Below, piece by piece: positions 7,277 to 62,527 of a DNA stretch of 64,000 bases. The DNA is taken from positions 992,001-1,056,000 of the forward strand of contig OY729416.1 of the NCBI GenBank assembly GCA_963422265.1, given 5' to 3'. The DNA comes from Thermodesulfobacteriota bacterium. GTDB taxonomy: Bacteria > Desulfobacterota_D > UBA1144 > Nemesobacterales > UBA2774. Each line of letters opens with the position of its first letter. The stretch's first letter is position 1. A program made the translations under genes and the position numbers. Under the pieces are notes generated by a model, which did not search any database, was not told the DNA's origin, and saw nothing but the letters and a program-made list of their open reading frames with translations.

Positions 7277-7279
7277 GAC

Positions 7280-9607: not shown

Positions 9608-9657
9608 TTACACAGCATCAATCAGTGTATTAACTTAACTGAAAAGCGGCGTTTAGC

Positions 9658-34506: not shown

Positions 34507-34543
34507 TTTAAGAAAGAACTGCTTACGCTCAACTAGTTTTAAG

Positions 34544-34975: not shown

Positions 34976-34978
34976 AGT

Positions 34979-39400: not shown

Positions 39401-39680
39401 TAACCCCGTCAGTCAACATCTGATGAAACGCCTCGTTGCTTTCCACTAGACTTTGACTTGGCAAGTTTAATACCTCATGCAAAATCTGCACCCGCGCGTC
39501 TTGTGGAATAAGCGGATTGAGCTTATCAATCGCTGCTTCCAGGCGTGCGCGCAGGACGACGTCGGACAAGCTGACCCGTTCGCGCTCCTGCTCTTCTGGT
39601 GAAAGGTATGAGTAACCCTGATTTTGTAGAAGTTCTATGACGAAGTTTTCAACGTCGGATTCATATATAGTGGTGCTCAT
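36423..39680 (-). CDS. hsdR: Type I restriction endonuclease subunit R
   Basis: [46 protein letters not shown]. Confidence 0.97.
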
Positions 39681-40260
39681 GAACTTTCAGTTATTGCCCC
39701 GCTGGAATCCTCTATTAGGTTTTTGAGGCTCTTAAGGAACACATTATAGCTCTTGCTTCTGTTCTGAGACGAAAGATGAGTACCTATCGCTCGCGAACCT
39801 GAGATCTTTTGGTATTTACCTTTAGTTATTCTCTCTAGTTCAAGAGAGGGTTTGTCTATGTCATCGGGTATGCGGTATTTGCTTTTGTTTGTATGGCTAG
39901 CCAGCTTAGGACAATCATCAAGAGCCTCCTCAACGGCTTTAATGTCTCCAAAATACCAACTTTCCAGCTCCCGGCAGGCGATCCTAACAATGGTCTCGGA
40001 CTTGCCCGCTCTTCTGCATATATCAACTATCCGCCTCTTGACTTCCTTACACTCGCTACGGTCTTGGTCCAGCAGAACAATAAACCTACTGTTTGGGGCG
40101 TTATCCATCTCTTTAGACGTTTGGGCAGTTCCTTTTGAAGGTCTTGCTTGCCTTCAAACACGATATAGTGGGGGATAATGGAGTCCGGTAAAAGACCCGC
40201 AAGCAATCCCTCGAGCATTTTCTGTGCGGACCTTTCCTCCAGAAAAAAGACCAGATTCAC
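39677..40260 (-). pseudogene. DUF4276 family protein, frameshifted near 40095
   Basis: MNLVFFLEERSA...FEGKQDL in one frame continues as PNSRFIVLLDQD...ELESWYFGD in another. Confidence 0.8.
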
Positions 40261-41453
40261 GAAGGATCCGCTCCATCAAAAAAACCCTGTCTCCATAGGT
40301 AACCCATCTGATCGCCATCCTCCATGTAAGCCCGAACCTGCTCATCATCCTTAGCCCGATGGACGATCGCGTAACCGTTTTCTTTCTGAAGCCAGAAGAC
40401 TTCATCCAATTTGGCGGCGTTCAAGAAATCCGGGGAATGTGTAGATACAAAGACTTGCCCCCCGCGGTTGGCATACATACGAAACTCCTCCGCCAATTCA
40501 GACAGTAAGGACAGATACAATTGATTCTCTGGCTCTTCAACACAAAGCAAAGGGTGAGGATCGGGATCGTAAAGCAAAGTCGGGTAAGCGAGCATTTTTA
40601 TAGTCCCATCCGACACGTAACGCGCCAGAAAAGGATCCTCAAAAGTGCCATCACTAAACTTTAATAGAATTCGCCCTTCTTCAGTCTGCTTTGACTCAAC
40701 ACCCGATATTCCTGGCACCCGCTCTTTCAGTTTATTCACTATCTCCTTAAAGATAGCTAGATGGTTGTTGTGCAGGTATTCAATAACTAGAGACAAATTA
40801 TCTCTCTCAGTGGAAAGATGCTCGGCATAACCGGCCTCCTGCTCTGGTCGCGCCTGATTAACGTGAAAATCGGAGACGTGCCAACGCTCAATGAGGTTGC
40901 CCAGTGCAACCGCGGCGGGGAAACGTTCAAACTGGGCAAGCCCTTTAATCGCTAGCAAACCCTGAGACTTGAGCGTCTGCTTTTCGCGTTGCAGCTTTCT
41001 CACGTCAGTAACCTCTTCAAGCTCATTGGTTACGGCTTCTCCCTTGCCGTTTTTAAAATCCAGAAAACGCCAAGGCCGTCCCTTACGACCCCGACGATAT
41101 TTAAGAACTTCTCTTTTCACAGTTGGACGAGGACGACTCCCCTCTAATTCGTCAATCTCAAGCAGGTAAGTTATCAATCGCCCCCTAGTGGTTTGTCTAA
41201 ACTTGATTTCAATCTCTATTGGACCTTCAGAATTCCTACTTCTCACTTCATTAAAGCCCCTGCTTCCGCCAAGTTTGGCAAGGGCGGTTTTCACATTGGA
41301 AGTCATTGCGTTGCGGAGAAAACCGAACACGGAGAATAAAGTGGACTTACCAGCCCCATTAGCGCCAACGAATACCGCAAAACTGGGAATCTCCCGCATT
41401 TCTACTTCACGAAAGGCGCGAAAGTTTTTCAACCGTAGGTATTCAATTCGCAT
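40257..41453 (-). CDS. AAA ATPase (AAA_21-like), partner of DUF4276
   Basis: GANGAGKS, SDGT, VEEPENQL, STHSP. Confidence 0.9.
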   Translation of the reverse strand: MRIEYLRLKNFRAFREVEMREIPSFAVFVGANGAGKSTLFSVFGFLRNAMTSNVKTALAKLGGSRGFNEVRSRNSEGPIEIEIKFRQTTRGRLITYLLEIDELEGSRPRPTVKREVLKYRRGRKGRPWRFLDFKNGKGEAVTNELEEVTDVRKLQREKQTLKSQGLLAIKGLAQFERFPAAVALGNLIERWHVSDFHVNQARPEQEAGYAEHLSTERDNLSLVIEYLHNNHLAIFKEIVNKLKERVPGISGVESKQTEEGRILLKFSDGTFEDPFLARYVSDGTIKMLAYPTLLYDPDPHPLLCVEEPENQLYLSLLSELAEEFRMYANRGGQVFVSTHSPDFLNAAKLDEVFWLQKENGYAIVHRAKDDEQVRAYMEDGDQMGYLWRQGFFDGADPS

Positions 41454-41588
41454 AGCCTGCTCCTTGCTTAAAAATTATCCATTTTATTCCGATTTGTCAT
41501 ATAGCGCATGGAGCAATACATCACGTTGTCTCACGCAGAGGTTATACCACGACCAATTGTCAGTCCTTCAACCAGCCCAGAATACCAT

Positions 41589-42485
41589 TTAGGGCTTGGA
41601 GCCGTATTCATAATCGCGTCCGATTTTCCAAACCTCTTTTTCTCTAAATGCCTGTATAGTCTGACGACGGGCGGCGTTGGTAACGGCTGGAGCCGAAAGT
41701 CCGTTCTGTTTGATATAATCCGACAGTCGTATAATGCTCTTTCCTTTTAAGTAGGTTATCCGCTTGTGCAACGATTCCAGCAAAGCCAAAGCTAAAATTC
41801 TTTCCATTATTTTCGCCTGCTTCTTCTCGCGGTAATCCCCAAAGGCTTCATAGTATATGCTCTTTTCCTTGTTGCGAATTATGACGCGTGGAAATCCTAA
41901 CTCTAACAACTGAAAGTTAATAATCACTCGCCCTATACGACCATTGCCGTCGCAAAACGGATGGACGGTCTCAAAGTCCAAATGGAACTTGGCGATTTTA
42001 TCTAAAAAATAACCGTCTAGGTCGTTTGAATAGGTAAATAGAACGTTACCGATCATTCGCTCAACATGCTCCGGTGGAGGGGCTATATGAGCACCAACCC
42101 GCACGTATTCACCCTTTTGTCGAAATCGCCCGGCAATAGAGTCGTCAATACCACCCATAAGCATTTTGTGTAAAAGAAGGATGAGTTCCTCGGTCAGACT
42201 TTCTCTTTTAACCTTGCTACGCTTATAATCAATTACCCGAGCTAAGTTTCTCGCCTCAAACACTTCCCGGACAGAGACGTTACGGGATAATTCCATCTCT
42301 AATAAAATTTTCTCCGTCTCTTTAAGCGTTAAAGTGGAGTTTTCTATGGCATTTGAGTTATAGATGCTCTCCGGTGCTTCCGCCTCGTCAATCAAGGCTA
42401 AAAGAGACTCCTTGCCGCTTGCTAAGGAAGCATATTCTTCCCGCAATGCGCTAATTCTTTTTCTAATAGATTGCCGAGTAGCCAC
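41589..42485 (-). CDS. Fic family protein
   Basis: HPFCDGNGRIGR; SNAIEN motif. Confidence 0.93.
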   Translation of the reverse strand: MATRQSIRKRISALREEYASLASGKESLLALIDEAEAPESIYNSNAIENSTLTLKETEKILLEMELSRNVSVREVFEARNLARVIDYKRSKVKRESLTEELILLLHKMLMGGIDDSIAGRFRQKGEYVRVGAHIAPPPEHVERMIGNVLFTYSNDLDGYFLDKIAKFHLDFETVHPFCDGNGRIGRVIINFQLLELGFPRVIIRNKEKSIYYEAFGDYREKKQAKIMERILALALLESLHKRITYLKGKSIIRLSDYIKQNGLSAPAVTNAARRQTIQAFREKEVWKIGRDYEYGSKP

Positions 42486-42555
42486 AATGAACAGTTAAAA
42501 GATAGTTTTAAGTTTACAGTTTTGAGTTGACAGCTAACTAACAACTATCCACTTG

Positions 42556-42583
42556 ATTATATAAATTCACTTGAATATGTCAA
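42556..42583 (-). promoter_or_regulatory. Consensus sigma70 promoter upstream of fic
   Basis: TTGACA-N16-TATAAT; duplicated at 43821-43848. Confidence 0.75.
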
Positions 42584-42810
42584 TAAAGCGTGAAGAGAAG
42601 TGTTAAAGAGGGGTATATTCACGGGGTTTTTGTCTGAACTATGAGAAGGGGAATGACGATGGAGACAAAAGAAGCCCTCACCCTGTCCCTCTCCCAGAGG
42701 GGAGGGGTCTAAACTGTGATTGGTAGGATTAAAGGACGGACTTTGGCAACTAATCACTGATCACTGTCAATTATCAAACTAAACTTCATAGTATTCCCAA
42801 AATCATTAAA

Positions 42811-42885
42811 ATCACAGTTCAGATACTCTCACTTCCCTATTCATCAGATTCGGTAACAGAGCATCCCGCGGGCTTTCAAGAGTGC
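42811..42885 (-). pseudogene. hsdS 3'-end remnant E
   Basis: Translates TLESPRDALLPNLMNREVRVSEL*. Confidence 0.8.
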
Positions 42886-42895
42886 TCAATACAAA

Positions 42896-43045
42896 TCATT
42901 TTTTCTTAACGGGTGGAGATGGTTCTTGATCTTGAGGTCGAGAAACCAAAGGTAACGGAGGTGGTATTCTTGATGGTCTCGGAGGGGGTGGAGATAATAT
43001 TGTTCTTTTATACGCTTTAACTTCTTCTATTTTTTTATTGCTCAT
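42896..43045 (-). CDS. Small Pro-rich protein (49 aa) downstream of DUF6338
   Basis: MSNKKIEEVKAYKRTILSPPPPRPSRIPPPLPLVSRPQDQEPSPPVKKK; GAGAGG upstream. Confidence 0.5.
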   Translation of the reverse strand: MSNKKIEEVKAYKRTILSPPPPRPSRIPPPLPLVSRPQDQEPSPPVKKK

Positions 43046-43069
43046 TTTACCCATCCTCTCAAGCTTATT

Positions 43070-43651
43070 CTACAATATTTGTTCAATAGCTGCAATATCT
43101 GATAACCGAATAAGTAGATGTCCTCTTGCAAACACTTCTTTATTTGCACCCTCTGATAAGTATTGTGGATCGGTGATAATCACAAAATCATCATCTTTTA
43201 TATTATCCGTAAATTCTTGAACATACCCAGATAAACAGACTCCATTCTTAAGATAAATTATATAATATGATTTCGCAGTTACAGCAAAATACGAATGTAA
43301 AACTGTAGGAAATGAAGTTTTCCGCGTAACCCTAAATCTTCGCAGAATTTGAAACAATCTATCTTCATTGGCTAACTGGGAAGATACAAAACCTATAAAA
43401 ACAGGAAGTAGTAATTTCCCAACAAACAGTCCAAATTCAGGTGAGGACATTACGTTTCCCATTCCCTCTACGTTAAAGAAAACAAGCACTTTTTCTACAA
43501 AAAGAACACAACTTTTGTTAATTACAGTAAAAATCACGACATAAATAACCCCTTCAAACCTCTGAGGTTTTACATAACTGGTTAGCAAATAAAACACAGC
43601 TAACGATACAAACCCAGGCGTTAGTAGGTCAATTAAATTTATAACTTGCAA
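43070..43651 (-). CDS. DUF6338 family membrane protein
   Basis: LLTPGF, TM segments, YYIIYLKNG..LSG; divergent paralog of 6074-6664. Confidence 0.7.
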   Translation of the reverse strand: MQVINLIDLLTPGFVSLAVFYLLTSYVKPQRFEGVIYVVIFTVINKSCVLFVEKVLVFFNVEGMGNVMSSPEFGLFVGKLLLPVFIGFVSSQLANEDRLFQILRRFRVTRKTSFPTVLHSYFAVTAKSYYIIYLKNGVCLSGYVQEFTDNIKDDDFVIITDPQYLSEGANKEVFARGHLLIRLSDIAAIEQIL

Positions 43652-43688
43652 AATTGAATTTTTCTCCTTGGTGGTTAACCCTTAATCA

Positions 43689-44123
43689 AAGGAAGCATAT
43701 TGTTCCCGCAATGCGCCAATTCTTTTTCTAATAGATTGCCGAGTAGCCACAATGAACAGTTAAAAGATAGTTTTAAGTTTACAGTTTTGAGTTGACAGCT
43801 AACTAACAACTATCCACTTGATTATATCAATTCACTTGTATATGTCAATAAAGCGTGAAGAGAAGTGTTAAAGAGGGGTGTATTCACGGGTATTTTGTCT
43901 GAACTTATGAGAAGGGGAATGACGATGGAGACAAAAGAAGCCCTCACCCTGTCCCTCTCCCAGAGGGAGAGGGGAAAAGAAAGTCTAAACTGTGATTGGT
44001 AGAATTAAAGGATAGACTTTGACGACTAACCGCTGACCACTGTCACTTATTCAAATTAACCTTCATAGTATTCTAATAATCATTACTTCCCCACTCATCA
44101 GCTTAGGCAATAAGGTATCCCGA
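43689..44123. repeat. Direct repeat unit, copy 2, ending in hsdS 3'-end remnant D (RDTLLPKLMSGEV, about 44085-44123)
   Basis: Offset 1265 bp from copy 1 at its left end. Confidence 0.85.
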
Positions 44124-44156
44124 ACGATTGGAAGTATTAGCTTTTTACCGCTTAAA

Positions 44157-44921
44157 CTATGAGGCGAGCTCATTTTTAGATCGCTCTCTATCACTCCATA
44201 GAACAGGTTTGATTTCGTAGTTTTTTAGCGCATCTAATGCATTACTTGATATGTCTCGCCCACTGTCATTGATGAACGCATACGCCTTCGAATCTTCAGG
44301 ACGAACATCTTTTGTATCAACCCAATCCACTATAATTGAATCCACGCTATTACGCGTGGGATTATTGATTGTTTTAATAATTCTCTCTGGAGACTCAAAC
44401 GACTTTGTAATCAGAAAATCAAACTTTCTCGGATAGCCAGATTTTCCAATAAATGAAATGTGCGTGGAATAACGAATTTGAGAAATGTCAAGCCAGCCTC
44501 TAACATCCTCAAAGAACAAGTTAGTTACGTGCGGTTGCGCTAAGTAAAACATATCGCTTATAGCTAAAATGGATTGTATTAGGAAATGCTTTCTTATGGC
44601 GAAGTTATCTGATGTGGCATTAACTTGTAAACAATCTCCCTCTTTTGCAACTCCATATCCTGCAAGGGTTAAGTTTAGCAATTTTTGCCTTTGTGGGCTA
44701 TCCAAGGAACACCCTTCCTGCAAAAGACCTGTGATTGTGCTTCCACCATCCGTTAATAGATAACCTTGATCCGTTTTCTCAAGATATATTTGGATATAAT
44801 CGTTGTTTCTATCCAGATAAGGTGCTGTAATCTCTACCCATTTATTGCCTACGGACTTCCAAGCGGTTTTGTCTCTTAACCAACCGTAATACTGATCAAT
44901 AAGTAAATTCATATCGCTCAT
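44157..44921 (-). CDS. DUF1828/DUF1829 protein
   Basis: ITAPYLDRNNDYIQIY..LTDGG, F.GKSG...FDF.I, W.D, YAFIND. Confidence 0.85.
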   Translation of the reverse strand: MSDMNLLIDQYYGWLRDKTAWKSVGNKWVEITAPYLDRNNDYIQIYLEKTDQGYLLTDGGSTITGLLQEGCSLDSPQRQKLLNLTLAGYGVAKEGDCLQVNATSDNFAIRKHFLIQSILAISDMFYLAQPHVTNLFFEDVRGWLDISQIRYSTHISFIGKSGYPRKFDFLITKSFESPERIIKTINNPTRNSVDSIIVDWVDTKDVRPEDSKAYAFINDSGRDISSNALDALKNYEIKPVLWSDRERSKNELAS

Positions 44922-45364
44922 GTGAATAACCCTTTTCTAATAACAGGAATTGAAATGACATTACAATAAGTCATAAAATCATTGAGCGTCTGAATTTTAT
45001 CTTCTAAATTTGAAAATTTATCAGAAGGAATTTCAAATGCCCATTTTAGACCATAATTTTCTCGATAAAGATGTAAATGTCTTGCCCCGATTTCTTCTCC
45101 GTCAGGATTTATATGGGGTGGACCATCCAAGTCTAGGCGTGCCAACCCAATAACTTGCCTTGCTCTAAGGTGATGATTGCGTTTTGATAAGTTAATTGAA
45201 TACTACGTGTAATTTAGAATAAACTCTTCTTTTTTATCCTCTGACTGCAGTAGAATATGCAATTTGCCTCCCATAACAGGCATGTCTAATTCTTTACTAC
45301 TTGCAATTTTACCCATGGCAAGCAGCGCATCTCCCTCAGATTGAGTTAAAAATATGTCCGCCAT
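44918..45364 (-). pseudogene. DUF6978-like protein with in-frame TAG at 45203-45205
   Basis: MADIFLTQSEGDALL...LNYT*YSINLSK...LARLDLDGPPHINPDGE...HLHLYRE.YG.KWA. Confidence 0.75.
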
Positions 45365-45400
45365 TAAGTTGCCCTCACCTCCCTACTCATCAACTATGGA
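45364..45400 (-). pseudogene. hsdS 3'-end remnant C
   Basis: P*LMSREVRAT*; its TAA overlaps the ATG of the DUF6978-like gene. Confidence 0.6.
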
Positions 45401-45527
45401 ATTCACCAATCATAGTAATTTTGTCTGAACTATGACTCTTAGGATGAAATGATGGACTTTGACGACTAACCGCTGACCACTGTCACTTATTCAAATTAAC
45501 CTTCATAGTATTCTAATAATCATTAAA

Positions 45528-45597
45528 ATTACAGTTCAGATACTATCACTTCCCCATTCATCAGTTTTGGCAACAACGTATCGCGCAGGCTTTCAAA
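45528..45597 (-). pseudogene. hsdS 3'-end remnant B
   Basis: ESLRDTLLPKLMNGEVIVSEL*. Confidence 0.8.
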
Positions 45598-45727
45598 TAG
45601 AAGAATAGTAATTCAAGAACTATTAACGTTACTCTTAGGATGAAATATGAAAAAGCCTGCTTTTAGATCAGCCTTATAGCGAAGTTCTCAATATCAGATC
45701 ATAACTATCGCTCATTATTACTAGATA

Positions 45728-47242
45728 TTAATAAATATGTTTGAATAGTTCCACTTCTTCTTTAGAAATAACAAATGGCATTATTTTAATCTCTTCCTTG
45801 TCGATTATGTCTGCGTTACTTATTACTTCTTTTAAATCCTTTTTAAGCCAATCTGAACACCATAAATCAACTTTATTATCTAACACCTTTTTACATAGTT
45901 TCTCATCATACTTTTTAGAATCATCCACTTTTAAGGTTATCCTTTGCAACCATATTTGGAGATGACCTATGTTCGGTAGTCTTTCAAACTTTGTTACTAT
46001 TTTGTCAATTATTAATTTTATATCCTTTTGTTCTAATGAATCTACTTGTTTTAATGAACGTATGAACTTACTAAGAATGGCTATTGAGATTGGGTAAGTT
46101 TTTGGGTTCTTCATCGCAATGTCTGTCATAATACTTATAAGGACTTTTAGATTTTTACTATTTTTCACCACTATATTACTGTAAAATTTGTGTAATTCCT
46201 TGGTGACAGTCCCAGAATTCGGATACTTGTCCGCAACATCACTAATAATGTATAACTTCTCTTGTAGAGTCTTTTTCAATCCTGTTTTATTCGTTGTTAT
46301 CCAGTAAAGTTTGTCAGGTTTGATTGAAGCTTTTACCACATTGTTTGACCTTATTGCCTTGCCTTCATTGAGGTTAAATCCCAATTCCGCAAGAACTTCA
46401 GTTAGATTTTTTATTATCTTCCCTGCCGTTTGTGGATTATTAACGAATATTCTGTAATCATCTCGATATCTCAATATCTGAAAATCTTTATCTTGATCTT
46501 GTTCAGAGTTAATTTTCTCCCGTAACTTTAAGTCCGCGTACCCTAATACAATCTCAGCAACAAAATCCATCAATACGCTTCCCTGCGGTATGCCGTTTGT
46601 CTGCCCGTAAGACATTGACTGTATGGATTTATCAATCTGATTTCCAAGTAGTTTCGAATCCGTGCGTTTCTCTTTCGCACATTCTTTTCCGTGAATTGCC
46701 CATGAGATAGAATGCGTGTAAATGGAACCGTAGCAATCGGTTATATCTGTTGTGTATAAGTACTCGTAATCTAAAGCTAACTCAATTGATTTCTGTTCCA
46801 CTTCGTCAAACCAATGCGTGATTTGCTCTGCCTTGTCTGTTTGTTCACTTTCGGATACAACAGGTAAACTGAAGCATTTAATTTTTTCATTTTCTCTAAA
46901 CTTCTCAAAACGGCCTTTTAGTGTTTTCCAATTAGTTTGTTCCGTAATCTTATGGACTAAAGCAACATACAATACTGGATGGATTAGTTGAATGGGCCGC
47001 CAAGCATACTGACCACTCTTGTTGGTCAATAGCTTATGATTAACCTTTTCATAATTGCTTGGTTTACTACCATTTGATGAGTAAAAATCTTTTAAAGGTT
47101 TACCATCCAACTCTTTTGAAATATCTTTTAACAATTCGGAAAATGTAAAATATGGTGGCAAATCAAGAGTGCAGTAACTTTCCTTTTTTAAAAGAAACTC
47201 ACGCGCCTCACTTTCTAATAAATCCAGAATGCTTTTTCCCAT
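45728..47242 (-). CDS. Stand-alone defence-type reverse transcriptase (Abi/UG-DRT-like)
   Basis: DITDCYGSIYTHSI.WA, GIPQGS, YRDD catalytic motif, helical C-terminal extension. Subtype unconfirmed. Confidence 0.85.
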   Translation of the reverse strand: MGKSILDLLESEAREFLLKKESYCTLDLPPYFTFSELLKDISKELDGKPLKDFYSSNGSKPSNYEKVNHKLLTNKSGQYAWRPIQLIHPVLYVALVHKITEQTNWKTLKGRFEKFRENEKIKCFSLPVVSESEQTDKAEQITHWFDEVEQKSIELALDYEYLYTTDITDCYGSIYTHSISWAIHGKECAKEKRTDSKLLGNQIDKSIQSMSYGQTNGIPQGSVLMDFVAEIVLGYADLKLREKINSEQDQDKDFQILRYRDDYRIFVNNPQTAGKIIKNLTEVLAELGFNLNEGKAIRSNNVVKASIKPDKLYWITTNKTGLKKTLQEKLYIISDVADKYPNSGTVTKELHKFYSNIVVKNSKNLKVLISIMTDIAMKNPKTYPISIAILSKFIRSLKQVDSLEQKDIKLIIDKIVTKFERLPNIGHLQIWLQRITLKVDDSKKYDEKLCKKVLDNKVDLWCSDWLKKDLKEVISNADIIDKEEIKIMPFVISKEEVELFKHIY

Positions 47243-47246
47243 ATTG

Positions 47247-47362
47247 GCTAATTAAATCCTATCTTCACTTCCCCACTCATCAGCTTCGGTAATAGGGCAT
47301 CTCGAAGACTTTCTAGGGTGCAGATTTGGGATTAGTTATTTTCAACCTTTGAGAATATATCC
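47247..47362 (-). pseudogene. hsdS 3'-end remnant A
   Basis: IFSKVENN*SQICTLESLRDALLPKLMSGEVKIGFN*; near-identical to 56315-56390; ends just before the RT start. Confidence 0.85.
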
Positions 47363-47417
47363 AGTGCTCTCTATAGGCAAATTCAATTCTCTTATCATCC
47401 TTGAGTTCAGTCATTAC

Positions 47418-48113
47418 TTAGAATACTTTAAAATATCTTTCAAAAACTTCCCTAGTTTCCTCTGAGGTTCGTGATTTTCGAGCAGTATAAAGCTTAAGAA
47501 AAAACTCTCTGACATCTTCATCTTCTGCTATCCATATAATCTGACTGTTCTCAGTAGAAGCTTCGATCAAATCCTCTATTTGCTTATCCAAAAAATATTT
47601 CACATAATCTCTTATTTTATCAATATAACAATGCGTTGATGCAAACGAATCAGAAATAACCAGAGATTGAATTCCTCTTGCAAAATCAAAATCAGTGAAA
47701 TCGTTTATTTCCCTGGACGCAAAATCTACTTCTACAAAGGATGTTTTGTGTTCACAAGAAATCTCTATAACCCAGTTTTCTTCAATGTTTAACCAAATGT
47801 TCTTAATACAATCGCGAGAAATGTTTTCCGCAACCTCTTGCTTTAATTTACTTATGAAATATTTTTCTTTGAAATAAGTGGTAGTATGTTTTTCAAATTC
47901 CTCAAAATCTTTTACAACTCGCACCCTGTCTTGTTTGGCAAAAGCTTCCCTAAGCCTGTGACCTTTTGTCCAAAAGAACATAGTCTCATCGCCGCAGTTT
48001 TTTATGTATTCCAGAACTGTGAAATAAATATAGGCATCTTTGAATCCCTTGTCTGATACTTTGTCAAAAGGCGGTAAATGGTTCAAAGCCAACTCTTTCA
48101 TTTTTCCTATAAC
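47418..48113 (-). pseudogene. C-terminal part of a PIN-domain protein
   Basis: PPF...DKGFKDAYI motif. Lacks a native N-terminus, which lies at 55975-56295. Confidence 0.7.
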
Positions 48114-48120
48114 AGTAAAG

Positions 48121-48270
48121 TTACCCCCCCCCGCTAAGCCCACTGGTCTCAAGGCGGTGGCGGGCGACGGCCAGGTGACGCTAAGCTGGAATAATCCGAA
48201 TGGCACTACCATCTGGCAGTATCAGATCAAGCAGTGGACTGGGAATAGCGAGGCCGGGAGTTGGACTTAA
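48121..48270 (+). pseudogene. Fibronectin type III domain fragment
   Basis: PAKPTGLKAVAGDGQVTLSW.NP....I..YQ...W; no start codon; higher GC than the flank. Confidence 0.7.
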
Positions 48271-48275
48271 TGACG

Positions 48276-48304
48276 TTGACATGCGTATTAAGACTTGTTA
48301 AGAT
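48276..48304 (+). promoter_or_regulatory. sigma70 promoter of the adhesin gene
   Basis: TTGACA-N17-TAAGAT with extended TG; GGAGGG RBS at 48333-48338. Confidence 0.7.
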
Positions 48305-48343
48305 GAATATGCCATATAGTGAACAATCTCACGGAGGGATGTA

Positions 48344-54938
<6,595 letters not shown>

Positions 54939-55413
54939 GGGGGAGATGTGCTATGATTAAAAGAATTAAAGATTAAATCCCCTGCTATATCCCCCTTTTA
55001 CAAAAGGGGGGGCATTGTGTAGGGAATGAACTCTCGTCCCCCTATGCTCTATCTGGATTCCTAGTTGAGCTGGTAATGACGTGAGGGAGTGGGGTTCTAT
55101 TGACGGGGTGTTAAAAGCTGTTAGAACTAGCTATTATCTTTCATTTTCCATCTTTTTTCTGTTACTTTCTCGGCACTTTTCTTTAACTTTTCTATTCATT
55201 TTCTATCCTTTTTATCTCTTTTCTTTAACCTGGTAACCACGTCTCTATGAGGCAGGTCCTCATAATAATTTAAGCTCTCTTGGTGGTAAATATGACGTCG
55301 CTAATTGAGGTCTAATTGGAGTTTAACAGGAGATTAAAAGCATCTTCGGCAGACTTTCTGTATATACGCAAGTAATTAAAACGCCTTATCAAGTGTTTAG
55401 TGATACGGGATAT

Positions 55414-55614
55414 GGAATAAAAATGACCGGGATGCCAGCTTTCGGGATTGATCACAGCGACGAAGACATCTGGGCAATCGTAGCATTCCTCAAACGCCTG
55501 CCCGATTTAAGTCCTGAAGAATATCAGCTTATGAAAAATAGCAACATGCTATCGGGTATGGAGGGAAAGTCGGACGTGGATGATTTTGAGCATGATGAGC
55601 ATTATGGGCATTGA
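55414..55614 (+). pseudogene. Cytochrome c gene, C-terminal half (inverted)
   Basis: GIKMTGMPAFG..HSDEDIWAIVAFLKRLP. Confidence 0.75.
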
Positions 55615-55653
55615 TTGTCCGGAGAAAAGCTTGGTTAGTAATAAGCGGTCACA

Positions 55654-55974
55654 GTTCTTGGTTATCCAGAAAAGCTCTGAAGAGCTTAGCTCCTCAGCCT
55701 CTTTTGCAAGTCTGGGGGGGCTTGGATTAAACCCTTTTGCAGGTTCTGCGTTGGGGGAACCATGGCACCCTATGCACATATTCTCGTAATGGTGAAATCC
55801 GATTTCTACAAGCTCACCGTCATTGAGCCTCGGTCTCTCAATCCCATATGAGTGTTTTTTTATCGAGCGATGCTTGGCAAAGTCAAGGGTCCACTTTACC
55901 ACTATAGAATCAGGGCTAGTCGCAGCGACGTCGTAATTACCCGAATATATATATGCGGTTATACCCGCTACAAT
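55654..55974 (-). pseudogene. Cytochrome c gene, N-terminal half
   Basis: YSGNYDVAAT...CIGCH (CxxCH)...ELFWITKN. Confidence 0.75.
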
Positions 55975-56295
55975 AGAGTCTGCGTCTTCCAATTTAATTA
56001 CACTAAATGTAAAGTTCTCGTTATTTAGTAGATCAGAAATAAAACCCTCAATGTCAAATTTTTTGGTCTGATATTCGTTGACCTGCATTAAAGAACGAAA
56101 AATGTTTGATAAAAAAGAATCTCGCTGTAATGTGAGACTTTTCCTTTTGCAAATCTTTATTTCCTCAATTACCATTTCTGGAATAATAATATCCGCCACC
56201 TGTGCAAAACTTTGCAGTTCTGTTCTCCCTCCCAGAAAGTTTTGGACATCTTTGTTATTTGCAATACTTGTATCAACAATTACTTTGAAATCCAT
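55975..56295 (-). pseudogene. N-terminal part of the PIN-domain protein
   Basis: VIVDTS and IIIPEMVIEEI PIN motifs; starts just after the hsdS stop and is fused in frame to cytochrome sequence. Confidence 0.7.
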
Positions 56296-56302
56296 ATTAC
56301 TC

Positions 56303-57745
56303 TTAGCTCTCTATTATCACATCCCCACTCATCAGCTTCGGTAATAGGGTATCTCGCAGACTCTCTAGGGTGCGGATTTGGGATTGGTTAGTTTGGGATT
56401 TGTGAAATATAGGATTCACCACGCTATTGAATCTAACTAAAGTGTTTATATCAGGTTTAGGTACTTTGATTTCCATTATACTACCATTATTAACATCTGG
56501 TTGGACTGTCCCACTTATTAAACTATCTTTGACGTTCTGAAAATCCTGACTATAGACAAAACACCAAATATAATAATGGCTCTCTTCCGTTGTTTTTAAT
56601 CCCGCAAAGCCCGTTGATAAAACCGTATCGGCAACTGATTGTTTTGAAAATGCGTCAAACATCAAAACTTTCCTGACCCCTCCTTTTTTGGCAAACCACA
56701 CTGAATAATCTACTGGTTGCATATTTGCTCTAGAGGGTCTGCTACCATATGTTATCTTAGTACCCATACCTTGGATTTTCCCTCCCTGCACATCAGCGGT
56801 TGCAATATATGTTTTCTCTCCTTCAAATTTATGTATTCCACTACTCATTATTTTTGATAACTCAGAGTTGCCGAGAGATACTTCCTCCCACCCTTCATCT
56901 CTATCCTCCACAAAGTACTTTCTGAACAGGGTTTGTGCCATGTTTTCTAGTGTTTTGTTTTGGCGGTAGAGAAGTTCTATTGTGTCGTCAAGACTGGATA
57001 ATACTTCGGCAATCGCCTTTTGTTTGGGAAGTGGGGGGAGAAAAACTTCCAAATTTTCAATATCAGACTTACTGATTGATGAAAAAATACTTCCAGATGA
57101 ACTGCTGTTAAATTGATTTGCAGAAAATTTGAGCAAATAAAAAAGAAAATCTCGCTCACCACTTCTCATTCTCAGTCCAGCATTTCCCCGACCAATAGAG
57201 CATTTCTGCCTCGTGAAATTGACATCACCAACTGGTGCTCGCACGCTTAGCAAAAGGTAGTTGGGCTCTATAACCTTCTTGGGACTAGAACAATAGACTC
57301 TTGGGGTAACGTATCTATAACCAAAATCAACTACACCTTGATAAAATGGTAATCCTTCTCCATTTTCATTATAAGTTTCGGATTTTGGAGACTGCCCCAT
57401 AATTACATCCACAACCTCCCCCAACCTCACTTCTCGCCAACCTTTCCTATAAATAGTAATTCCATATCTATCAATGTGCTTCTTCACTTCAGGGCTGGTT
57501 ATGCTCTCATAAGAAACAAAGTCAAAGAAGAAAAGCAAATTGGTATCTTCCTCAAAACAAGTTTTGAGTTTTGCTGCAAGTGAGTAGTCTGCTTCTTTTT
57601 CTTTGATAGCAATATCCACATCAGAGGCTTCCTTAAATGTATCCATAGCTCTTGACCCAAAGAGTACCGCTTCATCAATTTTTTTGTATGTAGAAATGAT
57701 TTTGATAATTTCGTTCAGTTGAGATTCTGAAAGCCCATATTTCAT
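56303..57745 (-). CDS. hsdS: Type I specificity subunit with N-terminal minimal nucleotidyltransferase domain
   Basis: Residues 1-100 contain LFGSRA...SDVDIAI; then W....LG TRD1, PPLPKQKAIA..L..LD conserved helix, TRD2, LRDTLLPKLMSG. Confidence 0.92.
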   Translation of the reverse strand: MKYGLSESQLNEIIKIISTYKKIDEAVLFGSRAMDTFKEASDVDIAIKEKEADYSLAAKLKTCFEEDTNLLFFFDFVSYESITSPEVKKHIDRYGITIYRKGWREVRLGEVVDVIMGQSPKSETYNENGEGLPFYQGVVDFGYRYVTPRVYCSSPKKVIEPNYLLLSVRAPVGDVNFTRQKCSIGRGNAGLRMRSGERDFLFYLLKFSANQFNSSSSGSIFSSISKSDIENLEVFLPPLPKQKAIAEVLSSLDDTIELLYRQNKTLENMAQTLFRKYFVEDRDEGWEEVSLGNSELSKIMSSGIHKFEGEKTYIATADVQGGKIQGMGTKITYGSRPSRANMQPVDYSVWFAKKGGVRKVLMFDAFSKQSVADTVLSTGFAGLKTTEESHYYIWCFVYSQDFQNVKDSLISGTVQPDVNNGSIMEIKVPKPDINTLVRFNSVVNPIFHKSQTNQSQIRTLESLRDTLLPKLMSGDVIIES

Positions 57746-58149
57746 AATTCTTTTTTTAGATAGTGATATAAATCTCTGACAATGGCAAAATAGGTTGCGT
57801 TAATAAAAGTGAGCACCTCTTTTAAGATTTCAGGATGATAAATATGACTAGTCTTATTGCGTTTATTTAGAGCTTCTAACCACTCTTCAGCATTGCTGAT
57901 GATTTCTGCCTGAAAAGCTTGTCGTAGGACTTTTTTGGGAGTTCCCAGTTGGCTATAGCCAGAATTTTCCAAATAGTCCTTGAGTGTTTTCCATGAAAGC
58001 TCTATCAATATCTTATAGCTTTGAACAAGAGACATTTGATAAGCTTCATTGTCTTGATTCTGCTCATACTCTTCCTGTCTTCGACAAAAGACTTTAAAAG
58101 ATTTTTCAAAGTTCTGAAACCTCTGTTTCCATCTGTCTTCGTTGTTCAT
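57742..58149 (-). CDS. HEPN protein (HI0074 nucleotidyltransferase substrate-binding family)
   Basis: RWKQRF.NF, ELSWKTLKDYLE, RNKTSH (Rx4H); ATAA/ATG overlap with hsdS. Confidence 0.9.
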   Translation of the reverse strand: MNNEDRWKQRFQNFEKSFKVFCRRQEEYEQNQDNEAYQMSLVQSYKILIELSWKTLKDYLENSGYSQLGTPKKVLRQAFQAEIISNAEEWLEALNKRNKTSHIYHPEILKEVLTFINATYFAIVRDLYHYLKKEL

Positions 58150-58328: not shown

Positions 58329-59504
58329 TTACTCATCCTGATCCTGTTCATACCTCTTAAAGTCGCACCCTACAATATTCATATAGGGAAAGAATAAGAA
58401 TAAACGGTTGCGACGGTTATTAGTCAGCTCTCTGAGAAGGTTTAACCGACAAAGATCATTGAGCATTTTCGCTACGGTTGGCGAAGAAAGATTGAGTTTG
58501 CGTTTTACGTGTGAAGCATTAACGATTGGCGTCTGAAAAAGCTCTTCTAAAAGTCTTAAATTATTACTCGCCCGTCCCCCTGTCCCACTCCTTATTGTTT
58601 CTTCCGTGTTTTCTTTGAGCTTGAGCGATTCTTGCAGAAGGTAAATGCTAAATTTTGCGGTTTTTTCAATACCTTCTAGGAAGAAAAGAAGCCATCCTGC
58701 TAAATTATTTTGTTGTCTGACCGCATCAAGTTTGTCGTAATATACTTGTCTATAAGATTCAAAAAATACGGAAGTGTAGAGTAAAGGCTTACTTAAAATC
58801 TTCTTCTCAACCAGAAAAAGGGGGATAATCATTCGTCCTACCCTTCCATTACCATCCAAAAAAGGATGAATTGTTTCAAATTGATAATGAGCAATACCAA
58901 TGCGGATCAAATCCGGAACCTTGAGCTTATCGTTGTTGAGAAATTTCTCTAAATCCGTCATTAAACCTGGCACTAGATTTTGATGAGGAGGGATAAAATG
59001 AGCCGTCTGTATAGAGCTTCCACCTATCCAATTTTGTGACGTTCGGAATTCTCCCGGTTTTTTCTCTCTGCCACGTCCTTTAGAAAGCAATATCCCGTGT
59101 AATTCTCTCATAAAACGGCTAGAGATAGGCAGTTGTTTTAGTTGTTCTAAACCATGCTTTATTGCTTTATTATACAATTGAACTTCAAGCCAATCATCCC
59201 GTTCTTCTAGGGATATATCTCTTTCTTCTTTGAAAGCGTCTTCAAAGCTTGTTCGCGTTCCTTCTATCTTACTTGAATAAGTAGCTTCCCCGCTGACAAA
59301 ACTAGAAATAAACAAGTCTATATTGGGAACAAGCTTCCCCATAGCGTTGAGTTCTCCAACAAATCGCGAAGATTTCTCAAGTTGCTGAGTCAAGGTTAAA
59401 TTGTCTATCTCTAATTCTTGATTGATGAAACTAGGAGAAAAAAAGTGGTATTTATAAGCTCCTATTTGACTGTAATTGCCGGAAATAAACGCTGATAATT
59501 TCAT
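58329..59504 (-). CDS. Fic family protein with C-terminal HTH
   Basis: SSKIEGT, HPFLDGNGRVGR, RNR.F tail. Confidence 0.93.
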   Translation of the reverse strand: MKLSAFISGNYSQIGAYKYHFFSPSFINQELEIDNLTLTQQLEKSSRFVGELNAMGKLVPNIDLFISSFVSGEATYSSKIEGTRTSFEDAFKEERDISLEERDDWLEVQLYNKAIKHGLEQLKQLPISSRFMRELHGILLSKGRGREKKPGEFRTSQNWIGGSSIQTAHFIPPHQNLVPGLMTDLEKFLNNDKLKVPDLIRIGIAHYQFETIHPFLDGNGRVGRMIIPLFLVEKKILSKPLLYTSVFFESYRQVYYDKLDAVRQQNNLAGWLLFFLEGIEKTAKFSIYLLQESLKLKENTEETIRSGTGGRASNNLRLLEELFQTPIVNASHVKRKLNLSSPTVAKMLNDLCRLNLLRELTNNRRNRLFLFFPYMNIVGCDFKRYEQDQDE

Positions 59505-59612: not shown

Positions 59613-61133
59613 TTATAGATTTGACTTTATATTGTTTAAATTCTCCAAAATCCGCCTGTTAAGCTCCGCCTCTTCTTTAAGCTGCCCCTCAAACTCCGCC
59701 TTTAACTCCGCAAACCTCTCGCCAAAATCAAAGTCATCTTCCGTCTCCACCAAGCCCACGTAGCGACCTGGACTCAGCACGTAATCAAGCTCCCGAACCT
59801 TATCTATCGCAACGGAAGCGCAGAAGCCCGGAACGTCCTTGTATCCTCCCCCATCCTTCCGCCACTGATGGTAAGTATCGGCGATTTTCGCAATATCCTC
59901 ATCTGAAAATTCCCTTGTGCGCCTATTGATTAAATGCCCTAGATGCTGAGCGTCAATGAAAAGAATCTCTCCCAACCGATTTCTGTCGCCGTTAAAGCTG
60001 TGTCGCTTGTTGGAAAGAAACCACAGACAAGCCGGTATTTGGGTATTGAGAAATAGCTTCGTTGGCAAGTTGACGATACAATCAACAAGTCCTGCGTCCA
60101 CGAGATTCTTACGAATTACGTCCTCACCAGAAATTTTAGAAGTGAGTGAGCCCTTGGAAAGCACAAAGCCAGCAACCCCTTTTGGCGACAGGTGATGCAC
60201 GAAATGCTGCACCCAAGCGAAGTTTGCGTTTCCAGCCGGGGGCTTGCCATATTTCCATCTCCCGTCGTTTTGTAGCATCTCGCCGCTCCAGTCGCTATCG
60301 TTAAATGGTGGATTGGCGAGAATAAAATCCGCTCTTAGGTCGGGATGAACGTCTTTCAAGAACGATCCCTCGCCGTTCCATTTCACCTGCGAGCCGTCAA
60401 TTCTGCGAATGGCAAGATTCATTCGGCAAAGGCGGTAAGTAGTTTGATTGCTTTCCTGTCCAAAAATGGAAATATCGTTAAGCCGACCTTGGTGTTCACT
60501 TACAAACTTTTCGCTCATTATGAACATTCCACCACTGCCACAGCACGGGTCATACACGCGCCCCTTATACGGCTGGATCATTTCAACAAGCAACTGAACA
60601 ATTGACTTTGGCGTATAAAACTGCCCACCCTTCTTGCCTTCCGCTAAAGCGAATTCGCCCAAGAAGTATTCATAGACCCTGCCGAGAACATCCCTTGATT
60701 TCGCCGCTTCATCACCGAGCGCAATATCGCCAATAAGGTCAATCAACCCGCCAAGCGAATCCTTAGCGAGATTTTGCTTTGCATAAACAATGGGCAAAAT
60801 ACCCTTGAGAGTAAGATTCTCCTTTGCGATCGCATCCATAGCGCCATCTAAGTCCTTACCTATAGTCGGCAGTTTTGAGCGCGAGCGCAAATACGACCAG
60901 CGAGCTTCCTTAGGAACCCAGAATACGTTTTTTGCGGCGTATTCGTCCTTATCTTCTGGATCAGAATATTCATGCTCGCCCTTGCGTTCCTCTAGGCTAG
61001 CGTAAAGCTCTTCAAAAGAATCAGAGATGTATTTGAGGAATATCAAACCCAACACGATGTGCTTGTATTCCGCAGCGTCAACGTTCTTGCGCAGTTTGTC
61101 CGCCGCTTTGAAAAGCTGAGACTCAAAACTCAT
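59613..61133 (-). CDS. hsdM: Type I methyltransferase subunit M
   Basis: [27 protein letters not shown]. Confidence 0.97.
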
Positions 61134-61243: not shown

Positions 61244-62527
61244 TTACGGAGAGATTATGCGCACCCCGTTCATATAGGGAATCAGTACCTCTGGAATTTT
61301 AACCGTTCCATCCTTTTCCTGATAATTTTCTAAAATCGCTATTACCGTCCTCCCAACGGCGAGACCCGAGCCGTTTAGCGTATGGATGAACCTAGGCTTG
61401 CCCCCGCCCTTAGGTCTATACCTTATAGACGCCCTTCTTGCCTGAAAATCCTCAAAGTTGCTACAGGAAGAGATTTCCCTATACGTGTTTTCACTTGGAA
61501 TCCATACCTCTATATCATAAGTCTTAGCAGAAGAAAACCCCATATCACCAGCGCAAAGAAGAACAACGCGGTATGGCAATCCAAGAAGCTCAAGCACGCA
61601 AACGGCATCTTTAGTAAGAGACTCATGCTCGTCATAAGAGACTTCAGGACTAGAGAATTTAACAAGCTCAACTTTGTTGAACTGATGCTGCCTTATAATG
61701 CCCCGAACGTCTTTGCCATAAGAACCAGCCTCACTCCTGAAGCATGGAGTGTAGGCTACGTATTTTACTGGCAGCTCAGCTTCATTTAGAATCTCATCCC
61801 TGTGAATATTAGTTACGGGAACTTCAGCAGTCGGCACGAGGTAAAAGTCCGTTCCCGCAATCTTAAACAGGTCCTCCTCAAACTTGGGCAAATTACCGGT
61901 TCCTATAAAACTCGCTTTATTAGCCATAAACGGCGGGAGAATCTCTGTGTAGCCGTGCTCGCCGACATGTATATCTATCATAAAATTGATAAGAGCCCTC
62001 TCGAGCCTCGCCCCAAGCCCTTTGTAAAGCGCAAATCGCGCCCCTGCTATCTTGGACGCCGTATCAAGGTCAAGAATATCAAGCGCCTTCCCAATCTCGA
62101 CGTGATCCCTAGGCTCAAAGTCAAACCCCCTCTTCTCACCCCACCTCTTCACTTCTACGTTGTCAACGTCCGAGCTTCCGACTGGCACCGTATCGTGCGG
62201 AACGTTAGGAACGGTAAGTAGAAAATCTCTAAACTTTTCTTCAGACCTAGCCCTTTCCTCTCCAAGCTCCTTTATCCTATCTGACAAAACCTTAAGCTCC
62301 GCCTGAAGAGCCTGAGCCTCTTGATTTCTTGCCCCTCTCCTGAGCGCTCCCACCTTTTTTGAGCCAACGTTTCTTTTATGCTCAAGATCTTCTACTTCCT
62401 TAATGATCCGCCTACGCCCCTCGTTCAGTGAGATAACAATATCCAAGTTGACTTGCGCCCCGCGATATTTAAGCCTCTTCTTTACCGTATCAAGATTTTC
62501 TTCTATGAATTTCGCGTCCAGCATCAT
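61244..62527 (-). CDS. serS: Seryl-tRNA synthetase
   Basis: [38 protein letters not shown]. Confidence 0.98.

Follow-up and report, generated by a model that had tools for sequence, protein, structure and literature searches.

A 64,000-nt stretch of the genome of a Thermodesulfobacteriota bacterium (GCA_963422265.1, contig OY729416.1, positions 992,001 to 1,056,000), referred to here in its whole length as the window, contains a type I restriction-modification (R-M) operon in which the conserved 3′ end of hsdS is repeated between accessory defense genes. Five orphan hsdS 3′ ends (S1 to S5) are present between hsdS and hsdR, every one of them in the orientation of hsdS, and they separate cargo of the PADLOC defense types: PIN, the AbiP2 reverse transcriptase (RT), PDC-M24, DUF6338, Fic and HEC-01. 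These relics of the hsdS end are genuine borders of cassettes, and the pattern recurs in other phyla. The array is best regarded as the outcome of homology-assisted insertion with long duplication, together with baggage left by translational coupling, and not as a site-specific integron-like system.

Orphan hsdS 3′ ends in the hsdS-hsdR interval

The operon is located between serS (61244-62527) and tRNA-Pro (34430-34506), with its genes on the minus strand unless stated otherwise, and runs in the order hsdM, a SoFic-like Fic gene, a HEPN-like gene, an hsdS fused to an MNT domain, ~16.6 kb of accessory genes and hsdR. Matches to Pfam and PADLOC placed hsdR, hsdM and hsdS together in this one locus, the gene content of a type I R-M system. 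With S' standing for an orphan end, the interval reads hsdS-PIN-S'-RT-S'-S'-DUF6978/DUF1828-S'-DUF6338-S'-Fic-ATPase-DUF4276-hsdR. This order had been given correctly in an initial annotation made from the letters alone, to which the analysis added that the PIN gene is split by a 7.9-kb insert and that the DUF6978 gene is broken.

The working hsdS (56303-57745, minus strand) ends in ...LRDTLLPKLMSGDVIIES and a stop codon; its conserved 3′ end is designated S0. The initial annotation had listed five diverged copies of this end, and all five were recovered by tblastn and blastn, a repeat search, alignment or, for S3, in the sequence itself, with tails beyond ...SGE[VD] that differed between copies in the way it had described. 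When the last 50 HsdS residues were compared with the whole 1.78-Mb genome by tblastn, S1, S2, S4 and S5 were the four best matches after hsdS itself (E values of 8e-9 to 0.04); S3, with nine codons, was unmatched, and the next match elsewhere in the genome had an E value of 0.11. For surveys, the motif D-[TA]-L-L-P-K-L-M was converted into a degenerate DNA pattern of 24 nt, at most one mismatch being allowed. The pattern matched five times in the genome of the window, always at this locus and on one strand, and once or not at all in each of the other 119 genomes in a set of 120 from the phylum, any match being found in 17 of the 120. S0 and S1 were 93% identical in a 45-nt core, and every other pair was 69 to 80% identical.

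The copies mark cassette borders, and the tail after ...SGE[VD] travels with the downstream cargo, as had been proposed. The accompanying claim of five independent captures was not borne out, since S2, S4 and S5 are each followed by a common spacer module of ~100 nt. In the case of the DUF6338 unit, the duplication is larger: a direct repeat measuring ~460 nt, S copies counted, lies on either side of this unit. Direct repeats of more than 30 bp thus flank window cargo at two places, over 397 nt at 91.7% identity around DUF6338 and over 74 nt at 91.9% around PIN. The minus-strand sequences at 43848-43821 and 42583-42556 are sigma-70 consensus promoters matching at 12 of 12 positions and are the sole perfect ones in 41500-48300. 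As there is one promoter per module copy, the DUF6338 unit received its promoter from the duplication. A GC-rich hairpin of ~40 to 70 nt that resembles a repetitive extragenic palindromic (REP) element and is dispersed through the genome was also observed in the duplicated modules (42650-42720 and 43930-43985).

Coupling of cargo starts to hsdS stops

The statement that PIN, RT and DUF6978 start within a few nucleotides of an hsdS end was correct, the distances of their start codons from an hsdS-type stop being 8, 5 and -1 nt, respectively, the last an overlap of the form TAATG. S3 holds the motif GGAGGTGA at a suitable distance ahead of the DUF6978 start, and its stop overlaps the DUF6978 ATG. 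Similar junctions were present in other loci (given L numbers here, as genomes are given G numbers). The RT and PDC-S54 genes of L061 also start close to an hsdS-type stop, ATGA stop/start overlaps occur in L115 and L119, and the full hsdS of L169 overlaps the start of an RT gene. The orphan of L115 is reduced to the last nine codons of hsdS, the shortest relic there, with AGGAGG retained. Across the window and the other loci, the ATG of coupled cargo genes was 0 to 9 nt from an hsdS-type stop, so that each relic holds the translation start region of its cargo gene. The presence in the relics of a Shine-Dalgarno motif and a stop/start junction suggests that the embedded genes may be co-expressed with hsdS.

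Origin and decay of the orphan ends

Twelve resident/orphan pairs were compared over 15 codons each, giving 51 synonymous and 25 nonsynonymous codon differences, a rough count, since pairs taken from a single locus lack independence. If local copies had decayed neutrally, mostly nonsynonymous changes would be expected; hence, the synonymous excess speaks for a foreign origin. These differences show that most of the relics diverged inside working hsdS genes and are the ends of other functional hsdS alleles. Signs of decay were detected in S5 and in the relic of L062.

Within each of the loci L065 and L066, resident end and orphan were 85 to 90% identical, as against 75 to 79% between the two genomes at these sites and 65 to 70% for the loci overall. 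This within-locus likeness could mean gene conversion between the copies, or selection. The orphans of these two loci (L065:8266-8343 and L066:5390-5480) form open reading frames (ORFs) of 34 to 35 codons that start with ATG and keep the C-terminal HsdS helix intact; a peptide may be made from them.

Recurrence in other genomes

Among 401 sampled Pseudomonadota genomes scanned with the 24-nt pattern, a match was present in 97, and two same-strand matches less than 2 kb apart were present in 6. All six paired loci (L061 to L066; Table 1) were of type I and had the form hsdM-hsdS-cargo-orphan-cargo-hsdR. Homology between the resident end and the orphan extended over 54 to 89 nt at 71 to 90% identity and ended at or just before the stop. 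It started at the codons Q-I-[RN]-T-L in four of the six (L061, L062, L065 and L066) and ~6 to 8 codons later in L063 and L064. Forty further loci with a single match comprised 32 real hsdS ends, 7 sites that were not hsdS and 1 isolated orphan-like match. Of these hsdS ends, 31 had a full reading frame, and extra orphans were detected in 2 of the 31, L115 and L119; opposite-strand and reversed-query controls gave no match in any of the 31. With the six paired loci, the array pattern was therefore present in at least 8 of the 401 sampled genomes. L119 contains three units, encoding proteins of 435 aa and 276 aa and a Y1_Tnp-like protein of 186 aa; two of the starts overlap the hsdS-type stop ahead of them (ATGA), and one is 4 nt after it.

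The pattern was also detected outside these genomes. The closest relative of the window RT in the genome set, at 57% identity, belongs to L017, from an Atribacterota metagenome-assembled genome, and has a decayed TLLPKLMKG relic ~60 nt upstream. L061 and L017 thus represent AbiP2-type RTs of two other phyla with an hsdS-end relic directly upstream. Three loci (L178, L179 and L180) share an order of hsdM, cargo ORFs, an ORF of 366 to 374 aa, an ORF of 257 aa and RT, with similar ORF sizes and with hsdR in L178 and L180. In L179, the only one of the three from which Pfam names were taken, the 366-aa ORF was identified as an other-family hsdS and the 257-aa ORF as a TIR gene; directly ahead of RT, the 3′ end of this hsdS is repeated over 36 nt (31 nt identical). 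The corresponding repeat was weaker in L178 (score of 35), and none was above threshold in L180. The occurrence of the same pattern in unrelated bacteria suggests a general route for the acquisition of embedded defense genes.

In complete genomes of E. coli, the S0 region matched 2 of 5,426, once each, and no match to the S0 region of L066 was obtained in plasmids. L079, in genome G308, was considered as an array and was rejected, the type I locus being decayed. At L096:2513-2542 (FLRDTLLPKLISDKLRV...), an orphan-like hsdS end stands alone, no type I gene having been detected within 13 kb.

Cassette gain or loss between related strains

Genomes G565 (locus L077) and G500 (locus L061) are close relatives, with 92.7% identity in hsdR and 95% in hsdM. 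The G565 locus contains hsdS (tail EVRVKY), a REP array, a RAYT-like gene, an orphan with a 203-aa gene, and hsdR. In G500, a block lies between the hsdS end and a third, short orphan and consists of RT and PDC-S54, each preceded by a flank and an orphan; this block is absent from G565. The third orphan consists of 11 codons and has the same tail and REP start. On both sides of the block is a 59-nt repeat (96.6% identity) made up of the last 11 hsdS codons and REP sequence, along with ~180 to 236 nt of REP copies; RT alone is flanked by a 199-nt repeat at 92.5%. The inner orphans (Sa and Sb in L061) contain the end of another second target recognition domain (TRD2; YKNINPSGL), which is also present in the decayed G308 locus. 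Each of the two genomes holds a unit that is absent from the other. No mobility gene (transposase or integrase domain) was found among the cargo ORFs, the RAYT-like Y1 gene being outside the G500 block. G565 thus provides an empty site for the G500 block, and the breakpoints between these relatives coincide with hsdS-end repeats, as the initial annotation had anticipated for related genomes; for the window itself, such breakpoints are indicated, indirectly, by contigs of the one run X1.

The comparison of strains at the window locus was based on assembled contigs of four sequencing runs and not on reads. X1 is a run of another study and represents a strain that is 93 to 95% identical; X2 to X5 are possibly from the source sample of the genome. 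Contigs of X2 and X5 matched the window without differences over 39000-43457 (S5 to DUF6338) and 44450-48235 (DUF1829, S3, S2, RT, S1 and PIN). A 62-kb contig of X1 covered 45520-47342 (the start of the spacer, RT and S1) and continued with 60.5 kb not fitting 47343-48550, indicating that an S copy stands ahead of RT in X1 but the 3′ part of the window's PIN gene does not. A 3.1-kb contig opened with a complete S tail and the start of the spacer joined to 44085, spanned DUF1829 and DUF6978, and after DUF6978 continued with three letters, an S core of 43 to 49 nt, ten letters and the 5′ part of Fic, extending back from 42254. In the third contig, 45544-45396 was linked to 42651-42438 via 482 other letters, and the depth of X1 was doubled over 42190-42508.

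Judged from these contig pieces, the PDC-M24 unit of X1 would follow a Fic copy truncated to 77 codons and a longer S copy. Given this longer copy ahead of DUF6978, S3 of the window looks like its deletion derivative. A loose end in X1 also shows in full the tail that S4 has lost, with the start of D12. X1 was without cover at 43147-43784 (DUF6338) and 47613-47931 (PIN 3′ part), uncovered stretches that are not evidence by themselves, and the X1 strain lacks a further 392 nt at 39745-40138 (DUF4276 region). Among the X1 contigs listed, none joined cleanly across the DUF6338 unit. Gain or loss with breakpoints at hsdS ends is therefore indicated between the window strain and X1, the direction of the event not being fixed. 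A family-level search around G387 yielded no close relative for an empty-site comparison, and four loci with hsdR 51 to 66% identical had a single hsdS and no orphan by the strict motif.

Features of the locus

The features of the window and of the six paired loci are collected in Table 1. The window RT combines a full-length PADLOC AbiP2 match with an RVT_1 domain, as is expected of an AbiP2/DRT enzyme. HEC-01 is represented by its pair of an AAA_21 ATPase and a DUF4276 protein, the DUF4276 ORF spanning profile positions 53 to 175 of 192. The 52-aa proline-rich ORF beside DUF6338 (42896-43054) had no family match in Pfam. Homologues of the PIN protein are ~338 aa in length. The ORF of the 5′ part of the gene continues through foreign sequence to 55549, and the ORF at 47418-48212 aligns to residues 107 to 335 of the homologue P0003 from its codon 33 on. 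The giant-gene insert between the two parts is a paralog, at 75 to 88% nt identity, of at least four other giant repeat-gene loci of the genome; no flanking target duplication was found at its borders (48117-55989). A search of 36000-62000 against Rfam gave no match at E values up to 0.1.

Table 1. Features of the type I operon in the window and of the hsdS-hsdR intervals of the six paired loci
Feature	Position	Strand	Evidence or content
hsdM	59613..61133	-	Pfam N6_Mtase 1.2e-104, HsdM_N
SoFic-like Fic gene, embedded between hsdM and hsdS	58329..59504	-	PADLOC SoFic 5.8e-112; Pfam Fic_N, Fic
HEPN-like nucleotidyltransferase substrate-binding protein	57742..58149	-	Pfam NTase_sub_bind 1.8e-29
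hsdS, 480 aa, N-terminal MNT-type nucleotidyltransferase domain	56303..57745	-	Pfam Methylase_S, Polbeta; PADLOC Specificity_I 7e-74
S0, conserved 3′ end of working hsdS	56303..56394	-	Repeat families D14 and D17; alignment
PIN gene, 5′ third, codons 1-102	55990..56295	-	54% identity to residues 1-103 of 335-aa homologue P0003
PIN-splitting insert, 7.9 kb, 50-64% GC	48117..55989	+	2112-aa Ig-like repeat ORF at 48600-54938, 285-nt tandem repeats
PIN gene, 3′ two thirds	47418..48116	-	57% identity to residues 107-335 of P0003
S1, orphan hsdS end, tail EVKIGFN(stop), in-frame stop upstream	47248..47358	-	91.9% over 74 nt to S0, blastn E 2.5e-22; 93% in 45-nt core
AbiP2-type defense RT	45728..47242	-	PADLOC AbiP2 8.5e-200 over residues 3-502; RVT_1 7e-11
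S2, orphan hsdS end, tail EVIVSEL(stop)	45529..45648	-	tblastn E 4.7e-7; alignment
Spacer module D12 copy (D12 follows S2, S4 and S5)	45423..45525	-	91% to 43983-44085
S3, last 9 hsdS codons, LMSREVRAT(stop), holds motif GGAGGTGA	45364..45393	-	Sequence
DUF6978 gene, broken into two ORFs	44918..45364	-	Pfam DUF6978 positions 1-49 and 72-133 in separate ORFs
DUF1828/DUF1829 gene (PDC-M24B)	44157..44921	-	PADLOC PDC-M24B 5.9e-96
S4, orphan hsdS end, tail shortened by ~23-nt deletion	44085..44125	-	Alignment
Unit-4 module copy: D12, REP-like hairpin, promoter 43848-43821, Fic codons 1-22	43689..44085	-	91.7% over 397 nt to 42424-42808
DUF6338 gene (43070-43651) and 52-aa proline-rich ORF (42896-43054)	42896..43651	-	Pfam DUF6338 6e-6, slightly under cutoff
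S5, most decayed orphan hsdS end, SPRDALLPNLMNREVRVSEL(stop), tail EVRVSEL(stop)	42830..42889	-	Alignment; 3 synonymous vs 6 nonsynonymous codon differences
Unit-5 module copy, promoter 42583-42556 ahead of Fic	42424..42808	-	Pair of unit 4
Fic gene (PDC-S04-like)	41589..42485	-	PADLOC PDC-S04 2.9e-36
HEC-01 pair: AAA_21 ATPase (40257-41453), N-terminally short DUF4276 (39677-40108)	39677..41453	-	PADLOC HEC-01 3.7e-195, 2.4e-46
hsdR	36423..39680	-	Pfam HSDR_N, SWI2_SNF2, T1RH-like_C
L061, hsdS-hsdR interval			Two orphans around AbiP2 RT (47% identical to window RT), then PDC-S54
L062, hsdS-hsdR interval			UvrD/GajB-like helicase, then orphan
L063, hsdS-hsdR interval			DUF4917 (PDC-S21), then orphan
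L064, hsdS-hsdR interval			199-aa gene, orphan, RhuM
L065, hsdS-hsdR interval			PDDEXK_3, orphan, RhuM
L066, hsdS-hsdR interval			PDDEXK_3, then orphan

Other observations concern the neighborhoods of these genes. The window hsdS is fused in frame to its MNT domain and has the HEPN-like NTase_sub_bind gene in front (56303-58149); the same HEPN-like gene is present ahead of a long (488-aa) hsdS in L066. Downstream of hsdR, a second ATPase gene (AAA_15/21, 438 aa) and a PIN gene (143 aa) adjoin tRNA-Pro, all within 34430-36295. The hsdS frame of L064 continues for 212 codons beyond the usual stop (7281-8975), and hsdR of L066 is in three ORFs with a DUF559 domain inside the middle one (6110-9679). 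Y1_Tnp genes or fragments of the IS200/RAYT-like type were seen between hsdS and hsdR, adjoining an orphan or a REP array, at L061:5947-6408, L077:6626-7087, L066:5508-6113 and L119:4994-5554. In L078 (G504:C13:36764-38041), ~10 copies of a 74-nt element are spaced 131 to 136 nt apart by a RAYT-like gene; this element is also present upstream of the L061 orphans.

Proposed mechanism and alternative explanations

The explanation toward which we lean is that the array was produced by insertion with long target duplication at the conserved hsdS end, assisted by homology and needing no recombinase. The hsdS-hsdR stretch would then act as a cargo bay that is filled stepwise. Genes behind hsdS are translationally coupled to it, the last hsdS codons holding their Shine-Dalgarno sequence and the stop abutting or overlapping their ATG. 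Whenever a coupled gene is moved, or new DNA is placed between such a gene and hsdS, the gene would retain the last 7 to ~35 codons of its former hsdS, and the orphans would, in consequence, be relics of other functional hsdS alleles. The 60- to 75-nt conserved hsdS end, the sole part that is alike at the DNA level between alleles, would supply the homology, and the spacer module, the REP-like element, the promoter and the 5′ end of Fic could supply more of it at this locus. Recombination between type I loci, with incoming DNA or between sister copies, would add, duplicate and delete units. Two crossovers within one target could bring a unit with an S copy on each side into a naive hsdS end, and unequal exchange between S copies could gain or lose units. 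Selection would retain only those products that have a whole hsdS and the start region of the displaced gene. The repeats, the stop/start coupling, the derivation of the relics from other alleles, their recurrence and the gain or loss at the repeats are results of the analysis; the recombination pathway, which may be of the RecA type or homology facilitated, and the direction of each event are what we infer from the pattern.

Random illegitimate insertion with long target duplication, followed by selection and by later trimming of the relics through deletion, would leave no part in recombination to the hsdS end. Such a process would fit the duplications that reach well past the hsdS end (397 nt aligned and ~460 nt with the S copies, including the promoter and Fic codons; 199 to 260 nt in L061), the giant-gene insert as an illegitimate insertion in this very interval, the spread of relic lengths from 7 to ~35 codons, and the coincidence of the shortest relics with the Shine-Dalgarno region. 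We nevertheless regard it as unlikely. All the relics examined, with their spacers, cover less than ~60 codons of a gene of ~400 codons, the strain-level differences included; in S1 of the window and in four of the six paired loci, the beginning of the relic coincides with the point at which alleles become conserved at the DNA level; the excess of synonymous changes shows that local duplication does not account for many of the relics; and new cargo sits at the native coupled junction behind a working hsdS, as a crossover inside the conserved end predicts. The orphans might also be kept for a function of their own, either as micro-ORFs for a C-terminal HsdS helix that modulates enzyme assembly or as regulatory elements, and not be scars of recombination. 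This idea draws on the ATG-started ORF of 34 to 35 codons in L065 and L066, whose peptide is intact and conserved in loci that are otherwise 65 to 70% identical, on the higher identity of S0 and S' within a locus (85 to 90%) than between genomes (75 to 79%) and on the synonymous excess. It is very improbable because S1 and S2 of the window contain no start codon that could be used downstream of an in-frame stop, S5 and the relic of L062 have acquired disabling changes (an in-frame stop among them), the L017 relic is frameshifted, and S3 and the L115 relic have only 9 codons.

A site-specific cassette system is one form of the proposal in the initial annotation, which had described an integron-like capture array with the hsdS 3′ end as an attachment or homology site. 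A recombinase encoded elsewhere, of the Xer type or of the HUH Y1 type, would in that case use the hsdS end as an att site for circular cassettes. The repeated borders, the promoter-less cargo beside a fixed platform gene, the Y1_Tnp-like genes by an orphan or between hsdS and hsdR in L061, L066, L077 and L119, and two Xer-like recombinases in the genome are in keeping with such a system, but the relics have no constant crossover point, their left borders varying from 7 to ~35 codons, and the duplicated stretches continue into unrelated flanking sequence. When six S copies were folded as single-stranded DNA, the z-scores were -0.5 to +0.4 relative to shuffles, with no hairpin; attC-type imperfect palindromes were thus not found in these copies by folding, which is not an attC model. 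On these three grounds a fixed att- or attC-like site was rejected. The tyrosine recombinase family PF00589 had three matches in the genome and none in the window, so that no intI-like recombinase adjoins the array; no recombinase was identified in a Pfam scan of 30 predicted proteins (27 within 26170-64000 and three short ORFs), and there is no integrase in the window. The window genome (G000), which has the largest array, contains no Y1 transposase (Y1/RAYT). We consider a site-specific system to be very improbable. What stands of the earlier proposal is the repeated borders, the recurrence of the relics and the gain or loss at repeats, together with the lack of a recombinase in the window, and a role of homology is the favored reading; the attachment site does not stand. 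An artifact, in the form of a chimeric assembly of strain variants, or a single tandem duplication followed by decay could be suspected from the module shared by S2, S4 and S5 and from the existence of strain variants with other arrays. This is scarcely credible for a genome in one 1.78-Mb contig that is matched by the X2 and X5 contigs, possibly of the source sample, across 39000-43457 and 44450-48235, with unrelated genes enclosed by the repeats and with tails and synonymous differences that set apart S0, S1, S3 and the S2/S4/S5 class.

Several points weigh against homology-assisted insertion. The first creation of a unit of cargo and S' still requires an illegitimate join, 60 to 75 nt at 70 to 93% identity is short for RecA-dependent exchange, and the short, similar relic lengths could result from selection or trimming and not from homology. 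The giant-gene insert is present in the same interval without any repeat; hence, some insertion in this interval proceeds without the hsdS end. The assembled contigs of the four runs showed no recombination intermediate, circle or junction read, and both strain comparisons are compatible with gain or loss alike. The survey pattern catches one hsdS tail family and misses diverged relics, such as that of L062, which was found by a sensitive scan. This hsdS tail was found upstream of RT in 1 of 43 genome loci (L017), out of 44 in the homologue set, and in none of the 75 metagenome loci checked for the tail, out of 80. The expectation that the closest homologues of the cargo would be found directly after an hsdS with the same tail therefore mostly failed for RT. 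None of the metagenome RT homologues was more than 58% identical, and these loci hence do not include strain variants of the window locus; any type I gene was nearby in 13 of the 80.

Relation to known systems

Insertion with long target duplication of R-M genes was, to judge from a reference list, reportedly treated by Nobusato and colleagues in 2000. Loci at which hsdS reassorts its TRDs or is inverted hold silent, TRD-bearing copies with inverted repeats and usually a recombinase, and switch specificity. The present locus resembles these in the use of conserved hsdS segments as recombination substrates and differs in having direct, TRD-less copies that separate unrelated genes. A phase-variable hsdS inverton or shufflon was accordingly rejected: the copies are direct, shorter than ~35 codons and without TRDs, no long inverted repeat joins them, and the window contains no recombinase. 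Islands and phages that integrate at the 3′ end of a tRNA or protein gene bring a replacement end, encode an integrase and have a fixed crossover core. An intact target gene with a partial 3′ end at the far side of the insert is common to them and to the array, whereas an integrase and a fixed crossover core were not found here. An island targeting a tRNA or other gene 3′ end was also rejected, as tRNA-Pro borders the island unrepeated (best local score of 20) with no integrase in the window. Like integron cassettes, the units are serial, mostly promoter-less cassettes by a fixed platform gene, with a repeated border and with content that varies among relatives. Unlike them, they have no integrase and no hairpin, their border is a variable coding 3′-end relic at the 5′ side of the cargo, and the duplications reach into neighboring sequence.

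Insertion with long target duplication is the closest of these systems in its signs. As described for R-M genes by Furuta et al. in 2010, in the portion of the article available (PMC2853133), the repeats often span a start or stop codon and the species are mostly naturally competent. The array shares with that description direct repeats of more than 30 bp, an empty site (G565 versus G500), the lack of a mobility gene in the cargo and the linkage to R-M genes. Set against that same portion, three differences are apparent: the inserts here are accessory defense cargo inside a type I operon and not the R-M system itself, the conserved hsdS end has been reused repeatedly in several lineages so as to build arrays, and the repeats are partly foreign, deriving from other hsdS alleles, and not copies of the local target.

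The cargo fits the models for HEC-01, PDC-M24, PDC-S04, PDC-S34, AbiP2 and SoFic and in this resembles known embedded defense genes. PrrC is a defense gene embedded in type I R-M loci (PMC12707154), and TgvAB in VPI-2 is a further embedded case (PMC11411939). The HEC and PDC candidates reportedly correspond to the "embedded" candidates of Payne and colleagues, an origin given in part in PMC11411939. The available portions of these two articles report embedding and do not mention hsdS-end relics as borders or as an entry route. No published description of orphan hsdS 3′ ends as borders of embedded cargo was found in a full-text literature search, which extended to articles other than supplements and most subscription journals.

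Implications

A more general proposal, which we offer tentatively, is that the conserved hsdS 3′ end may be a portable homology arm and that type I operons may act as recombinase-free "integrons" for defense genes across phyla. Any unit of hsdS end, cargo and hsdS end could then enter loci of the same family by host recombination, arrays would grow at hsdS and shrink by repeat-mediated deletion, and the relics might serve as an attC-like search handle for anti-phage genes.

Many recently described anti-phage genes are embedded in type I R-M, BREX and similar operons, and the literature searched leaves their route of entry unexplained. If the relics mark the border of each acquired unit, they would constitute a record of the history of acquisition and would point to a mechanism that needs no enzyme of a mobile element. 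They would also provide a marker with which cargo can be delimited in genomes and metagenomes, for example, the genes for the 435-aa and 276-aa proteins of L119, the 925-aa gene of L063 and DUF6338.

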